A stretch of 12,971 nucleotides of DNA from a virus (lineage: Duplodnaviria; Heunggongvirae; Uroviricota; Caudoviricetes): IMG/VR virus record IMGVR_UViG_2547132278_000011, positions 1-12,971 of that record; one strand, 5' to 3'. The notes below the pieces were generated by a model. The model was not told the DNA's origin. It did no database searches and saw only the letters and a program-made list of their open reading frames with translations. A program made the position numbers and the translations under genes. Shown one piece after another: positions 2,526-7,147 of the stretch; within the stretch, counting starts at the first letter, position 1; every line of letters starts with the position of its first letter.

Positions 2526-3266
2526 TTAATTAGATAGGGGATCAATAAACCGCCGTGCTTCTTCCAGTTCTTCTGGAAAGTGGTCGGAAATAAGGCGCTC
2601 TGGAACGATTTCCATTAGCCAGATAGCGGAGAAAATTGCGCGTATGCGCTTGCTGCGAGGGATGGTGCGCAAACGCTCCAGAATCCACTCAAAATAGCTT
2701 TCCTGGATCGGGTTGAACTGCATGTCTCCTATATGCTTAAAGCTAACCAGAGAGTCATCCAGACGGGTTGTTGCGCGTCTGGCTAATTTCTCTTCAAATA
2801 TCTCAATCAGTTCTGGCTGCCACAAATGCTGTGGGCGAGGCAGCTTGTCCCACAGACGTCGTGCAGCTGCGGAAAGAACGGTGGAGATAAAGTAGTCGTA
2901 TGAGCAGCAATAGCGGTCAGCAAACTGGCGTGATTTCCATAGCGACGTTTTATTGGCAGTCGACAACTCCTGATAAGGCAGGCGTTTTAACCCGGTGGTG
3001 AACGGAGCTGTTTCAAAGTGTTCGCGACCGTGCGTCAGCATGATATTTGAGTACTGACGTTTGTATGCCTCCGTAAACAGACAGGTGGCCATAAGAGGAT
3101 GCATGTCGCGGTAATCAAACCACTTCGTATCGAAGAGTTCAGCCTCGTCTTTGCAGCGCGACAAACCAATGTTTTCAGCAACCCACTTATCCATAACAGC
3201 GGTATTCCACTCTGTCATGAAGTCGTACTGGTCGTTGTCGATGGTGTCGAAAAAGATTTGGCTCAT
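2526..3266 (-). CDS. Hypothetical protein, first gene of the replication operon (possible helicase-associated factor; function unknown)
   Basis: 246-aa ORF taken from the ATG at 3266 (AGGTGA 6 nt upstream) rather than the GTG at 3275 in the ORF track. Ends 43 nt before the helicase start on the same strand. No recognisable motifs. Confidence 0.5.
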   Translation of the reverse strand: MSQIFFDTIDNDQYDFMTEWNTAVMDKWVAENIGLSRCKDEAELFDTKWFDYRDMHPLMATCLFTEAYKRQYSNIMLTHGREHFETAPFTTGLKRLPYQELSTANKTSLWKSRQFADRYCCSYDYFISTVLSAAARRLWDKLPRPQHLWQPELIEIFEEKLARRATTRLDDSLVSFKHIGDMQFNPIQESYFEWILERLRTIPRSKRIRAIFSAIWLMEIVPERLISDHFPEELEEARRFIDPLSN

Positions 3267-3444
3267 GTGGCTCACCTGGTAGGTAGTTACTTACTTATCA
3301 CAATGAGCTGATGATAGCGATTGGTGGCAGTTTTTGGAAGTGGAAACGGAAGGGAGTTGTTCTGGTGGGTATCTTTTGAAAGACCTGCTTCCGTATATTT
3401 AATAAGTTACTTATTATTTATATACAGAAACAGGTCATGAATAC

Positions 3445-5139
3445 TTAATTATTAAGCAATCTGCTCACACGTAGTTTGTTAAGACTTGATCTAGAGGCCA
3501 GTTTCGTTAATGCACCTATTGCTTTATTCGTGATTTTTTGCTGTTCTTCTGTTAGTTCTTGCATACTTTTGAATCTGAGCAACCCCTTTCTCACTAAATC
3601 CAAAGCATCCTGATTGCGGGATAATATCCACTTTAAATAATCATCTTCAGAGAAACTGTTAAGATATGCTATGTCACTATGATTAAATTTGCCTTCAATT
3701 ATTTTGTATAAAACATTCTCTAAATTAGTCTCTTCAGGCTTCTTATCCATCAATTTTTTTTGAATTAGCAGACCTAACTTTTCGTTACCAAATATCTCTA
3801 CATACAAATTCCGAAAAGCAGTATAAGCATCATCTTGGCTAACAAAGGCATCTGCATATGCCTCTATATAACTATCACAATCAATCTCCAATCTATTTAA
3901 GATATCAATCAAGCCTATGAAGTGAGCAACAGGTATGTGTGAAAGATTGTCGTTAATTACACATTTTATCTTAGAAATAAACTCAGATTCATTGTCCTTG
4001 AATGAGTCACTAAAAATATCCCAAACATTGTTAACCTCACATAAAGCCTTGTGTTCTTTATATTGTTTATTTTTTTCTTCTATTATACCTCGAATATTGC
4101 TTTCAGTAGAAAGATAACCATTCTTGAGATAAAAATCTATGTCATCATCGAAAGCAATTTCCGCTCGTTCATAAATAATATCAAGACTATTAATAAATGA
4201 ATATACAGAATCATCCTTTTTATCATCTAACATGTAATCAAATACATGTATGTTTTTAATTGATTCTTTAAACAAGGCATAATCAACACCTGGAACACCA
4301 GAATAGTAAACCACTGAAAACAGAACCAATCTATTGATAAAACTTTCTCTAACCTTATCCTCTGCCAAGCTTAGCTCATTCCTAAGATTAACCAGAGATG
4401 TTTTTATTTTATTTAATATACGGATATTTTTAATGCCTAAGTCATTTGCTAAGACTTTTAACAAAAGAAAATCAGAATCAGTTTCATAAAAAACTTTACG
4501 TAAGTTCTTCTCAGGCGTAGGATCGTATTTTATTTCGACATCAATTACTTTTTCTCTGTACTCTAAAAACTGTTTTTTTGCAGTTTCATCATGTAAATTA
4601 TCTTCATTTAAAATTAGAACAACTTTGCAACCTTTTCTTCTTGCTAATTCATCAATTACCCCCATAATTTCTTTAACTTCTAGCGAATTACCTTTTCTTT
4701 CAACATCATCAATACAAACCAAATAATTATTAACAAATTTATACTCAAGAGATGACAGCAGGTTATCTGTTTTGAACCCAAAAAAATCGTTCTTTCCGAA
4801 ATGTATTAAAAATTTTGACAAGGAGTTGTATTTCAACCATCCCCAAAACCCATTTCTATAACGAATCATAGTTCGATCCGTTTCAGATAAAATTAGTTCT
4901 TTATATTTCTTTTCATTAATTGGTGTGGCACAATGATAAAGAGTTTTTTTAATATCACCAATAGAGTTAACCCCAAACAAAGAAACATACGAATATGCAT
5001 TAAAATCTAATCCTTCAGAATGCTTAGTATAAAAACTATTCCAATAATGAGTTTTACCAACGCCCCAATCTCCTTTTATGACGGCAACCCGATGATCTGA
5101 AACTAGAAAATTTTTTAGAAATGATTCTATCGATTCCAT
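3445..5139 (-). CDS. KAP-like P-loop NTPase, soluble, with a ~370-aa C-terminal helical domain of unknown function; candidate horizontally acquired defence/abortive-infection gene
   Basis: 564 aa from the ATG at 5139 (the ORF-track start at 5148 is TTG). Walker A VIKGDWGVGKTHYW (KAP-type G-x-WG-x-GKT), Walker B-like LVCIDDVERK, then VVLILNED. No hydrophobic transmembrane helices between Walker A and B. Sampled 60-nt lines give 23-25% G+C (for example 4381-4440 = 14/60) against about 53% in the neighbouring parA region (5701-5760 = 32/60). Confidence 0.65.
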   Translation of the reverse strand: MESIESFLKNFLVSDHRVAVIKGDWGVGKTHYWNSFYTKHSEGLDFNAYSYVSLFGVNSIGDIKKTLYHCATPINEKKYKELILSETDRTMIRYRNGFWGWLKYNSLSKFLIHFGKNDFFGFKTDNLLSSLEYKFVNNYLVCIDDVERKGNSLEVKEIMGVIDELARRKGCKVVLILNEDNLHDETAKKQFLEYREKVIDVEIKYDPTPEKNLRKVFYETDSDFLLLKVLANDLGIKNIRILNKIKTSLVNLRNELSLAEDKVRESFINRLVLFSVVYYSGVPGVDYALFKESIKNIHVFDYMLDDKKDDSVYSFINSLDIIYERAEIAFDDDIDFYLKNGYLSTESNIRGIIEEKNKQYKEHKALCEVNNVWDIFSDSFKDNESEFISKIKCVINDNLSHIPVAHFIGLIDILNRLEIDCDSYIEAYADAFVSQDDAYTAFRNLYVEIFGNEKLGLLIQKKLMDKKPEETNLENVLYKIIEGKFNHSDIAYLNSFSEDDYLKWILSRNQDALDLVRKGLLRFKSMQELTEEQQKITNKAIGALTKLASRSSLNKLRVSRLLNN

Positions 5140-5160
5140 TAGTATCAATCCTTTAATTCA

Positions 5161-5189
5161 TATATTGGGCGTAACAAACGCCCAATATA
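5161..5189. repeat. Perfect 11-bp inverted repeat with 7-bp spacer (tatattgggcg-taacaaa-cgcccaatata) between the partition-gene stop and the NTPase start
   Basis: Read directly: 5161-5171 is the exact reverse complement of 5179-5189. Lies 2 nt past the stop of the 5191-5550 gene and 22-50 nt upstream of the ATG at 5139. Not followed by a clean U-tract on either strand. Confidence 0.9.
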
Positions 5190-5190
5190 A

Positions 5191-5550
5191 TCAACCTTTC
5201 TTCATCAACTCTCGTTTAATTTCATCGGTACGCATCGTAACGTCGGCAGCTGTGATCGCCTCGTTAAGCTTCACGATGTCCTCGATTTCCTGCGGTGACT
5301 TCTCTGCCAGATGGAAAATGGCTGCTCGAATCACGTCAGAACGAGTGAACTTCTCGAAGCGAGGGATGAACTTCATCATCTCCAGCAGTTCGAAGTATTC
5401 GTCTTCCAGTGACATTGTGCGGCTTTTAATTTTCTCTTTGCCACGAGTCGGGCGTCCCTGTGGTCTGACTGGTTGGCGCAAAGGAGTTGTGTTCTTAGCC
5501 GGTGCATCAGGCTCTTTGCGCTTTGCTAGGTCACCCATTTTCATGGACAT
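5191..5550 (-). CDS. Small partition/centromere-binding-like protein (ParG-like, putative ribbon-helix-helix) coupled to ParA
   Basis: 119 aa. Basic, Pro/Arg-rich flexible N-terminus (KRKEPDAPAKNTTPLRQPVRPQGRPTRGKEK) followed by a possible RHH segment (RTMSLEDEYFELLEMM). Its ATG overlaps the parA stop by one base (TAATG at 5548-5552). Confidence 0.55.
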   Translation of the reverse strand: MSMKMGDLAKRKEPDAPAKNTTPLRQPVRPQGRPTRGKEKIKSRTMSLEDEYFELLEMMKFIPRFEKFTRSDVIRAAIFHLAEKSPQEIEDIVKLNEAITAADVTMRTDEIKRELMKKG

Positions 5551-6218
5551 TATTCTTCTTCCTCCAGACTCAACAGATAATCTACAAATTCTTCAAACTC
5601 GGCTTCCGCCTTTTTGTCGCGCTCGCTACCGGTCATTTCAAAGATAGAACGACCAGACTCTTCCGCATCATCATAGACGTTGCGGTTATATAGATTGACT
5701 GGCGCAGACTCGATGCCAAACGTCTCAACAATCTCTTTAGCCGCCAGAATGCGAGACACTTGTGATGGCAAAGCCGGGCACTGGTTCATGACCGCGCGGA
5801 CCTTCACTTTATCGTTTACATTGCGAACATTGTCGATAATAGGATCGATGTCACGTAAAGATTTCAAATCACGACGCTTAGGACGCAGCGGGATAATGAT
5901 AACGTCAGCCATCAGCATCGCTTGTCGCTGAATTTCGGAGTCGAAGCCACCAGCATCTACCACTACAAACTCAGCTCTACCCTGAAGCGATTTTAGGTGC
6001 TTAATGATGTCATCCTGAACGTATGCAAAAGGAATCAGCTCAAGGTCTTCGTTCTGTCGACGGTCTTCACACCAGCTTGTTGTCGTGCGCTGAATATCTA
6101 TATCAGTGATATAAACCTTCTTCTTCTTTTTGACTTTCAGGCAAACGGCAATTTGCTGGGCAACGGTGGATTTGCCAGGCCCGCCCTTTGTGCCGCCAAC
6201 CACAAAGATCTTGGTCAT
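5550..6218 (-). CDS. parA: ParA/MinD-family partition ATPase (small type Ib-like ParA)
   Basis: 222 aa. Deviant Walker A VVGGTKGGPGKSTVA near the N-terminus, FVVVDAGG Walker B-like motif, acidic C-terminus. AAGGGA about 9 nt upstream of the ATG at 6216-6218. Confidence 0.8.
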   Translation of the reverse strand: MTKIFVVGGTKGGPGKSTVAQQIAVCLKVKKKKKVYITDIDIQRTTTSWCEDRRQNEDLELIPFAYVQDDIIKHLKSLQGRAEFVVVDAGGFDSEIQRQAMLMADVIIIPLRPKRRDLKSLRDIDPIIDNVRNVNDKVKVRAVMNQCPALPSQVSRILAAKEIVETFGIESAPVNLYNRNVYDDAEESGRSIFEMTGSERDKKAEAEFEEFVDYLLSLEEEE

Positions 6219-6366
6219 TGGAGAGTTCCCTTTGCGTATATAATTATCGTCTGAAACAACTTGTTTTCTTATATGTGATATAGCCTAAATGCCTACGGCT
6301 GTGGTGTAAAGGTTAAATGGTAGGTGCTGCCTTAGAATTTTTAGGCGAGAATCAATGGCTGTTAAC

Positions 6367-6389
6367 AAAAAAGGCGACCAAAGTCGCCT
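6367..6389 (-). terminator. Rho-independent terminator for the minus-strand two-gene operon
   Basis: GC-rich stem ggcgac (6373-6378) / gtcgcc (6383-6388) with a 4-nt loop; on the minus strand it is followed by UUUUUU (6372-6367), directly after the stop of the 250-aa gene at 6395-6397. An A-run/T-run on both sides means it could act in both directions. Confidence 0.6.
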
Positions 6390-6394
6390 GATTT

Positions 6395-7147
6395 TTAATC
6401 TTTTAGGTATAAACCTACTGGAGTTCTTGTTTTGCGGGAGATGATAAGTACGATAAATTTCTGAACGTTAACTTGCACTTTGTTTGGGAGCCAAGAGCTT
6501 AACTCTGCATCAAGCAACAATCCTCTGTTCCACGGCAAAAATCCGGTTTCTTTCCCCATCCCGTACTCACCTAACACATCCTCGAACGTTTCTGTTTTGG
6601 CATTGTATATACGCACATCGCCGGTTCGCATGAGAGGCCCTGCCCAGATCTTAGCACCAGGAATGGTTTGTGTATCGTCGCAGACTAAATGCTCATACCA
6701 ATGAAGAAGAAAGAGATAGGTACGGTGACACAATCCTCGCTGACGACGCTCTCTGACAGTTTCGACACCGGCTACCTGGTAACATTCGATCTCATTACCG
6801 TCTTCAACAAAACTATATTCACGCAGAGCTATCCTACCAGCGATCGTATTTTTGTTTTCGTCCAGAAGCCCGGACTGGAGCACCTCTTTGATAATCTCTT
6901 CTTCAGGGGCATCTTCATCCGCTCGATCTAAGATGAATTCGCTCAGGTCGCCTTGGTCGCGCGCACCTACAAGTTCCATAGAGACATACAGGCAAATGTC
7001 ATCTTCTGGTTCAATGATTTCAATTTCTGAGATTTTATAGAGGGAGGCTTCATTGATAAGAAAGCCAAAACGAACAACACGAGTCTCCCCTTTATGAGGA
7101 AACTCGCTTAGATCTTTTGAATATGCGCTATCTAGTGTAGGAGCCAT
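6395..7147 (-). CDS. Hypothetical protein (250 aa), second gene of an insulated two-gene operon
   Basis: ATG at 7145-7147 lies 16 nt inside the 3' end of the upstream 127-aa gene (overlap ATGGCTCCTACACTAG), with an in-frame TGA 12 nt before it, so this is a separate, translationally coupled ORF. Acidic N-terminal third (DRADEDAPEEE). No recognisable catalytic motifs. Confidence 0.6.
   Translation of the reverse strand: MAPTLDSAYSKDLSEFPHKGETRVVRFGFLINEASLYKISEIEIIEPEDDICLYVSMELVGARDQGDLSEFILDRADEDAPEEEIIKEVLQSGLLDENKNTIAGRIALREYSFVEDGNEIECYQVAGVETVRERRQRGLCHRTYLFLLHWYEHLVCDDTQTIPGAKIWAGPLMRTGDVRIYNAKTETFEDVLGEYGMGKETGFLPWNRGLLLDAELSSWLPNKVQVNVQKFIVLIISRKTRTPVGLYLKD

Follow-up and report, generated by a model that had tools for sequence, protein, structure and literature searches.

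The partition/NTPase locus and its palindrome

The stretch of DNA analysed here, 12,971 nucleotides long and referred to below as the window, is 99.8% identical to E. coli plasmids of ~110 kb, for example pSTEC409_1, and is related to Salmonella phage SSU5. Going by its sequence, the window is part of an E. coli SSU5-like phage-plasmid, a replicon whose genes include tail-fibre, lysis, helicase and primase genes. Every gene of the window lies on the minus strand. The features surrounding the palindrome are the following:

3383-3435, minus strand: far boundary of the cargo slot, a conserved, long AT-rich hairpin with the GC clamp ACCTGTTTCTG...CGGAAGCAGGT, followed by CTTTCAAAAG
3445-5139, minus strand: cargo gene for a KAP-family P-loop NTPase of 564 aa, which matches the PADLOC defence candidate PDC-S49
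5140-5160, minus strand: leader of 21 nt from the hairpin to the NTPase ATG, with the RBS AAAGGA at 5154-5149
5161-5189, minus strand: the palindrome as an RNA stem-loop, whose 12 perfect pairs enclose a loop of 5 nt and are GC-rich at the top and AU-rich at the base
5191-5550, minus strand: gene for the small partner of the partition ATPase (119 aa; start two codons later in RefSeq), encoding a putative centromere-binding protein
5550-6218, minus strand: ParF-like (type Ib ParA/MinD-fold) partition ATPase of 222 aa, with Pfam matches to MipZ, AAA_31, CbiA and ParA
6337-6389, minus strand: start of the partition operon, where a bidirectional terminator-like hairpin (6372-6389) closes the upstream gene and is followed by a promoter-like match

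The partition ATPase was found to match ParF of TP228 (PDB 4dzz) with an E-value of 1.2e-10. Its partner had been labelled ParG-like in an earlier reading made from the sequence only; position and size fit this label, but the 119-aa protein gave no detectable match against Pfam and PDB sequences. The partner protein is 91-100% conserved across 80 IMG/VR loci. Upstream of the operon, the terminator-like hairpin and the sigma-70-like promoter TTAACA-17-AAAAAT at 6365-6337 are consensus matches only. The stop codon of the partner gene (TGA, 5193-5191) is separated from the stem by a single base, at 5190. On the other side, the ATG of the NTPase gene at 5139-5137 shares its frame with the TTG listed at 5148 and is identical to the RefSeq start in pSTEC409_1, where the product is named P-loop NTPase fold protein; the palindrome therefore does lie 22-50 nt upstream of the NTPase start, as had been claimed. 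The NTPase segment forms a low-GC island of ~28-35% GC, against 44-50% around it, and this island starts at the hairpin. No promoter-like site scoring at least 9/12 was found on the sense strand between 5560 and 5130, the best candidate reaching 8/12 with a 19-nt spacer. Given this result and a leader of 21 nt, too short to contain a promoter, the NTPase would be transcribed by read-through from the par promoter.

The inverted repeat has the arms TATATTGGGCGT (5161-5172) and ACGCCCAATATA (5178-5189), which form 12 pairs with 100% complementarity around a loop of 5 nt (5173-5177). Its sense RNA reads UAUAUUGGGCGU-UUGUU-ACGCCCAAUAUA, and five of the 12 stem pairs are G-C. The perfect 11-bp palindrome with a 7-bp spacer that had been described at this place is thus real, with one extra T-A pair that turns it into 12 bp and a 5-nt loop. 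It had also been judged unlikely by chance in 13 kb, and the shuffles agree with this judgement: when the window was shuffled 300 times with its dinucleotides preserved and perfect inverted repeats with loops of 3-10 were counted, arms of 12 or more gave a mean of 0.01 per shuffle and arms of 11 or more a mean of 0.02. The folding energy amounts to -17.9 kcal/mol on the minus (gene-sense) strand, with z = -6.1 relative to shuffles, and to -17.5 kcal/mol on the plus strand.

A search for the same palindrome elsewhere in the replicon, which had been proposed as a check, returned a single copy per replicon. Neither is the half-site reused: apart from the two arms, the window holds no match with up to two mismatches, and the 110.9-kb sister replicon pSTEC409_1 yielded only 2-mismatch matches at chance level. 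With Rfam 15 at gathering score, no family was found at the palindrome; two sub-threshold chance matches fell within 3200-6500, neither of them at this site.

The locus occurs on plasmids of 263 of the 5,426 complete E. coli genomes (~5%) and is never chromosomal; 27 of these 263 carry the KAP cargo. The exact palindrome had no match in the chromosomes of the 5,426 genomes and was found in five IMG/VR contigs, always in an identical context. Hairpin and leader together (53 nt) were present in 22 of 72,556 plasmids, all of which are KAP-carrying, SSU5-like and from E. coli or Shigella. Relatives that lack the NTPase gene, the other place where the palindrome was to be sought, do not have it, and it was encountered with the KAP cargo only.

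A variable cargo slot beside the partition operon

The relatives comprised 80 IMG/VR loci found through the partner protein as well as annotated plasmid and phage loci, and 88 related loci were typed. Homology among them breaks exactly at the stop codon of the partner gene and resumes at the AT-rich hairpin, and the interval between these two points is occupied by 22 unrelated cargo types (88 loci), two of which are essentially empty slots. In three others of the 22 types, including SSU5 itself, a translationally coupled membrane-protein gene comes next and there is no hairpin at the par stop; the presence of a coupled gene instead of a hairpin in these types indicates that an operon-end hairpin is not obligatory. 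The slot lies between the partition operon and a 249-aa gene/helicase, at 3445-5190 in the window and at equivalent places in loci L002-L088 and L163-L165.

Among the cargos, PADLOC matches were obtained to PD-T4-3, PD-T7-5, PDC-S31 (DUF2971) and PDC-S49 (the KAP NTPase). The commonest cargo type is PD-T4-3, a GIY-YIG protein present at 28 loci, and several 350-aa cargo proteins had no family match whatsoever. By its PADLOC match, the KAP NTPase is a candidate anti-phage gene. PD-T4-3 and PD-T7-5 have been reported in SSU5-group phage-plasmids in a preprint. The slot and its hairpins are not described in the papers examined on these phage-plasmids. As far as the literature examined shows, the par-proximal edge of the slot had not been defined to the base before. 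The layout is constant: par stop, hairpin, cargo (at least 22 alternatives), conserved AT-rich hairpin. The value of the hairpin is that of a landmark, which marks the par-proximal edge of an accessory/defence-gene slot in SSU5-like phage-plasmids.

The element at the far boundary is a palindrome of ~55 nt with the clamp CCTG[C/T]TTCTGTATATA...TATACGGAAGCAGG, and three copies of it exist in the replicon, all in one orientation. In pSTEC409_1 (L094/L095), the further copies are located at 35837-35891 and 66232-66288; one copy precedes the terminase genes, and another follows a gene for a DNA methyltransferase. The element is wholly inverted in some relatives. G-U wobble pairs were considered as evidence for the strand on which this hairpin acts and were rejected: most variants pair in the par sense, and the inverted lineages give C-A mismatches. 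Where SSU5-type relatives lack a hairpin next to the par stop (L007, L008, L051 and L078), a strong one is found ~1040-1165 nt past this stop, between the coupled 145-aa gene and a DUF2971 gene, in a region that folds with energies down to -34 kcal/mol. In this region, hairpins generally mark the module boundaries.

Hairpins at the par stop codon

In 16 of the 22 cargo types, a strong hairpin (-13 kcal/mol or stronger) starts between -3 and +10 nt from the par stop codon. None of the 21 control windows, taken 300 nt into the cargo, reached -13 kcal/mol (Mann-Whitney p = 2e-5). The sequences of the hairpins in these 16 types are unrelated and have no motif in common beyond GC-rich cores. Furthermore, the hairpin adjoins the par stop under a co-directional and a convergent first cargo gene alike: with co-directional cargo it is situated between the par stop and the RBS of the cargo, and with convergent cargo between two stop codons. 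Because its position is the same for either orientation, the constraint is one of position, exerted by the end of the operon and not by the cargo gene or by any given sequence. Ten of the 16 hairpin-bearing types also qualify as canonical terminators in the par sense, by the rule of 5 or more T in 8, as exemplified by GGCGCC-AAAC-GGCGCC-TTTATTTT and AGAGTGCG-TTAAGG-CGCACTCT-TTATTTTTT.

Homologues of the KAP NTPase occupy the same slot of SSU5-like plasmids in Citrobacter and of the IMG/VR locus L081 (44% amino-acid identity) and in 75 Klebsiella plasmids (~39%). These slots keep the layout of stop, hairpin, 17-21 nt and ATG, with different hairpins that are canonical terminators. The possibility that the hairpin belongs to the KAP family itself, as an element 5' of its genes, was rejected, since the regions upstream of 18 distant homologues from other genomes folded with a mean of -7.0 kcal/mol, compared with -7.8 kcal/mol for internal regions. 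A search of species-representative genomes revealed no close donor of the KAP gene, the best match having 36% identity.

The two KAP subtypes of E. coli provide a further view of the hairpin. They differ at 10-30% of cargo positions, whereas not one change falls within the 36-nt stretch that runs from the stop codon to the end of the hairpin. Within the first 100 nt, 12-13 differences separate the subtypes, all of them in the 68 nt that follow the hairpin, and another four are located in the final 60 nt of the par gene. Conservation is thus selective for the hairpin, and the lack of changes across it suggests purifying selection. Covariation within the stem could not occur in this set, as the stem is identical in the 22 plasmid and 5 IMG/VR copies.

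Gene-end hairpins are not confined to the slot. In pSTEC409_1, 18 inverted repeats are perfect over arms of 10 bp or more, where ~1 would be expected; 14 of the 18 are intergenic and ~10 fall within 41 nt past a stop codon, among them one 7 nt past dnaE, one 33 nt past the major capsid gene and one past a helicase gene. As most of the repeats are intergenic or follow a stop codon, hairpins at gene ends are a general trait of this genome, and the palindrome of the window is a further example of an ordinary gene-end hairpin.

With regard to termination, the window's hairpin has the stem of a terminator (GC-rich, ~5-14 pairs, loop of 3-8 nt) and is placed on the sense strand, past the stop codon with which a transcription unit ends. 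The U-tract is deficient: whatever the truncation of the stem, the best 8-nt tail has 4 T in the par sense and 3 T in the antisense. The tail is U-poor both after the full stem (UGAAUUAAAGG) and after the GC core (AAUAUAUGA), and a consensus terminator scan did not call this hairpin. It may therefore be devoid of any terminating activity. The sequence-only reading had offered, as one option, a U-tract-poor terminator or insulator for the partition operon. Of its proposals for the activity of the palindrome, this one gains support, both from the recurrence of hairpins in 16 of 22 types, 10 of them canonical, and from the window's own tail of 4 T in 8.

We favour, with a probability of roughly 0.6, the reading that an RNA stem-loop would end the two-gene par operon as a leaky terminator or attenuator, that it may also protect the 3' end of the par mRNA, and that it would insulate the partition module from the variable slot. 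Incomplete termination is expected from a stem that starts 1 nt past the stop codon and is followed by a poor U-tract. A terminating ribosome would partly cover such a stem, and termination would be suppressed whenever a ribosome closely trails RNA polymerase. Read-through from the par promoter would then supply the NTPase, at a reduced level. The structure and position of the hairpin, the selective conservation it shows and the repeated occurrence of non-homologous hairpins at this site in relatives are direct observations; termination, attenuation or stabilisation and read-through expression are what we infer. Against this reading stand the U-poor tail, the lack of covariation in the invariant stem, the three types without a hairpin, and the conservation of the loop as well, which is beyond what a model of pure structure needs.

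The E. coli rpsU-dnaG-rpoD operon has an intra-operon terminator between rpsU and dnaG. As in this and other intrinsic terminators that serve as attenuators within operons, and as in lambda tR2 with its position-dependent behaviour, the window has a GC-cored, short-loop stem-loop on the sense strand directly past a stop codon, the next gene is co-directional and promoterless, and the equivalent hairpins of relatives have canonical U-tracts. Unlike those terminators, the window's hairpin has 4 T in its best 8-nt tail and an AU-rich base of the stem. A second difference is that it begins 1 nt past the stop, where strong repression by ribosomes is predicted from published data. Measured in E. coli, termination at lambda tR2 is all but abolished a few bp downstream of a translated gene and rises with distance (PMC4824070).

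If read-through does occur, candidate abortive-infection genes, of which the KAP NTPase is an example, would be kept low under par control. This would represent a simple design principle for the carriage of potentially toxic defence genes.

Alternative readings and related elements

An RNA structure that does not terminate transcription is the explanation closest to the favoured one. The stem-loop would then act as a barrier to 3'-to-5' exonuclease or as a processing site, giving the par and NTPase segments of the transcript different stabilities. The poor U-tract fits this proposal, as does a strong stem immediately past the stop codon, and terminator hairpins are reported to raise the stability of upstream mRNA (PMC11696848). 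However, canonical U-tracts accompany most of the hairpins that relatives have at this position, an indication that termination is what selection on the class has favoured. We regard this alternative as unlikely in its pure form; it overlaps with the leaky terminator, from which sequence analysis cannot separate it.

Much less probable, in our opinion, is a functionless passenger, namely the terminator of a former upstream gene that was imported together with the low-GC NTPase module. Such an origin would agree with the location of the hairpin within the low-GC island and with its restriction to KAP cargo, yet it does not account for 36 nt free of substitutions amid diverging flanks or for hairpins at the equivalent position in 16 of 22 cargo types. 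Distant KAP homologues, moreover, show no enrichment of hairpins upstream of the gene.

The palindrome had also been proposed as a recombination site marking the cargo insertion boundary. The boundary part of this proposal holds as a description: homology ends at the stop codon and the low-GC cargo starts with the hairpin. Nothing points to a recombination site, however; the hairpins have no common sequence, there is no adjacent recombinase and the far boundary is different. A more general version would be a signal at the DNA level, in which a hairpin or cruciform marks or mediates the capture or exchange of cargo cassettes at the par-proximal edge. The exact coincidence of the homology break with the stop codon, the hairpin being the first cargo-specific element, and the movement of the exact palindrome with KAP cargo only are compatible with it. 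DNA-level events do occur at the slot palindromes of other cargo types, where loops are inverted between relatives while the flanks are kept: gtacatt in one locus and aatgtac in another (L009 and L020, first 40 nt past the par stop), and atgg versus ccat (L055 and L063). Nevertheless, such a signal is very improbable. The hairpins found with different cargos have no motif in common, genes for an integrase, a transposase or an HUH protein are missing next to the slot, and the far boundary is formed by a different, conserved element. Homologous recombination in the conserved flanks gives a simpler account of the exchange, and similar hairpins follow many genes of the replicon that are not known to vary.

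The resemblance to integron attC sites is limited to a palindrome at a cassette boundary. In contrast to attC, the hairpin has no conserved R/L boxes, extrahelical bases or integrase; it stays by the par gene in any orientation of the cargo, and one slot is present instead of an array. Common core motifs and a nearby tyrosine recombinase were both absent, the neighbours being par, helicase, primase, lysis and tail-fibre genes. We give hardly any credence to the strongest form of the idea, that the par-stop hairpins might be structure-specific boundary signals of cassette capture, with unrelated defence genes swapped in at a hairpin or cruciform, or to its milder form, a conserved 'insulated landing pad' in which cargo would be read through from an autoregulated par promoter and gated by translation. 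Were the capture reading true, it would account for the homology break at the stop and for cargos that begin with a palindrome; the landing pad would tie the dose of defence genes to the control of plasmid maintenance.

The operator for a dimeric regulator that had been suggested found no support. In this explanation, which we consider very improbable, a dimer that binds DNA, either the small Par partner or a regulator from the host, would occupy the palindrome in the regulation of the NTPase or in partition. A perfect dyad with 12-bp arms, fully conserved between the diverged KAP subtypes with its loop included and located directly upstream of the NTPase start, speaks in its favour. However, conservation does not follow the cognate DNA-binding protein: loci L001 and L004 encode identical ParA-like and small partner proteins (WP_000161228.1 and WP_160378290.1) and have unrelated hairpins at the same place. 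Save for chance-level matches, the half-site is absent upstream of parA (6219-6394), from the rest of the window and from the 110.9-kb replicon, so that the motif is not repeated upstream of the operon. In addition, the KAP cargo has no regulator gene of its own, and the KAP homologues of Klebsiella and Citrobacter have different hairpin sequences. A REP-like element is dismissed by the occurrence of one copy per replicon instead of many copies per genome.

In pB171 par2, a parC2 site downstream of the operon contributes to partition. Like the partition-site repeats that are used with ribbon-helix-helix partners (TP228 parH/ParG; pB171 parC1/parC2/ParB), the palindrome adjoins a type Ib operon. 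It differs from the TP228 and pB171 sites in being a single dyad with no array of short repeats, in varying among plasmids with identical Par proteins and in having no counterpart upstream of parA.

The slot as a whole can be compared with the moron or accessory slots and defence hotspots of temperate phages and phage-plasmids, with which it shares a fixed position, many cargos, conserved flanking genes, cargo of deviant GC content and bracketing hairpins. A classical moron has its own promoter and a downstream terminator. In this slot, by contrast, co-directional cargos have the hairpin upstream and no detectable promoter, and the downstream terminator-like element is a common, conserved element of the backbone.

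Several minor observations concern annotation and neighbouring sequences. The annotation of phage Cyrano (L002 2761-2764) names the small Par partner 'RelE/ParE putative toxin' and stretches the DUF2971 cargo gene upstream across the hairpin; the likelier start is the ATG after the hairpin, which is preceded by AAAGG. In pSTEC409_1, IS1A splits the gene for the DnaB-like helicase (L001 1-520; L096 875-2992), which is unbroken in the window (446 aa, 1142-2482). Between this gene and a primase-like gene, a terminator-like hairpin, AAGCGTGGAG...CTCCACGCTT with a T-run, lies at 1112-1136 of the window, and beside it, at 1065-1092, is the perfect repeat TTTTCTTTTG/CAAAAGAAAA, which consists of A and T only.
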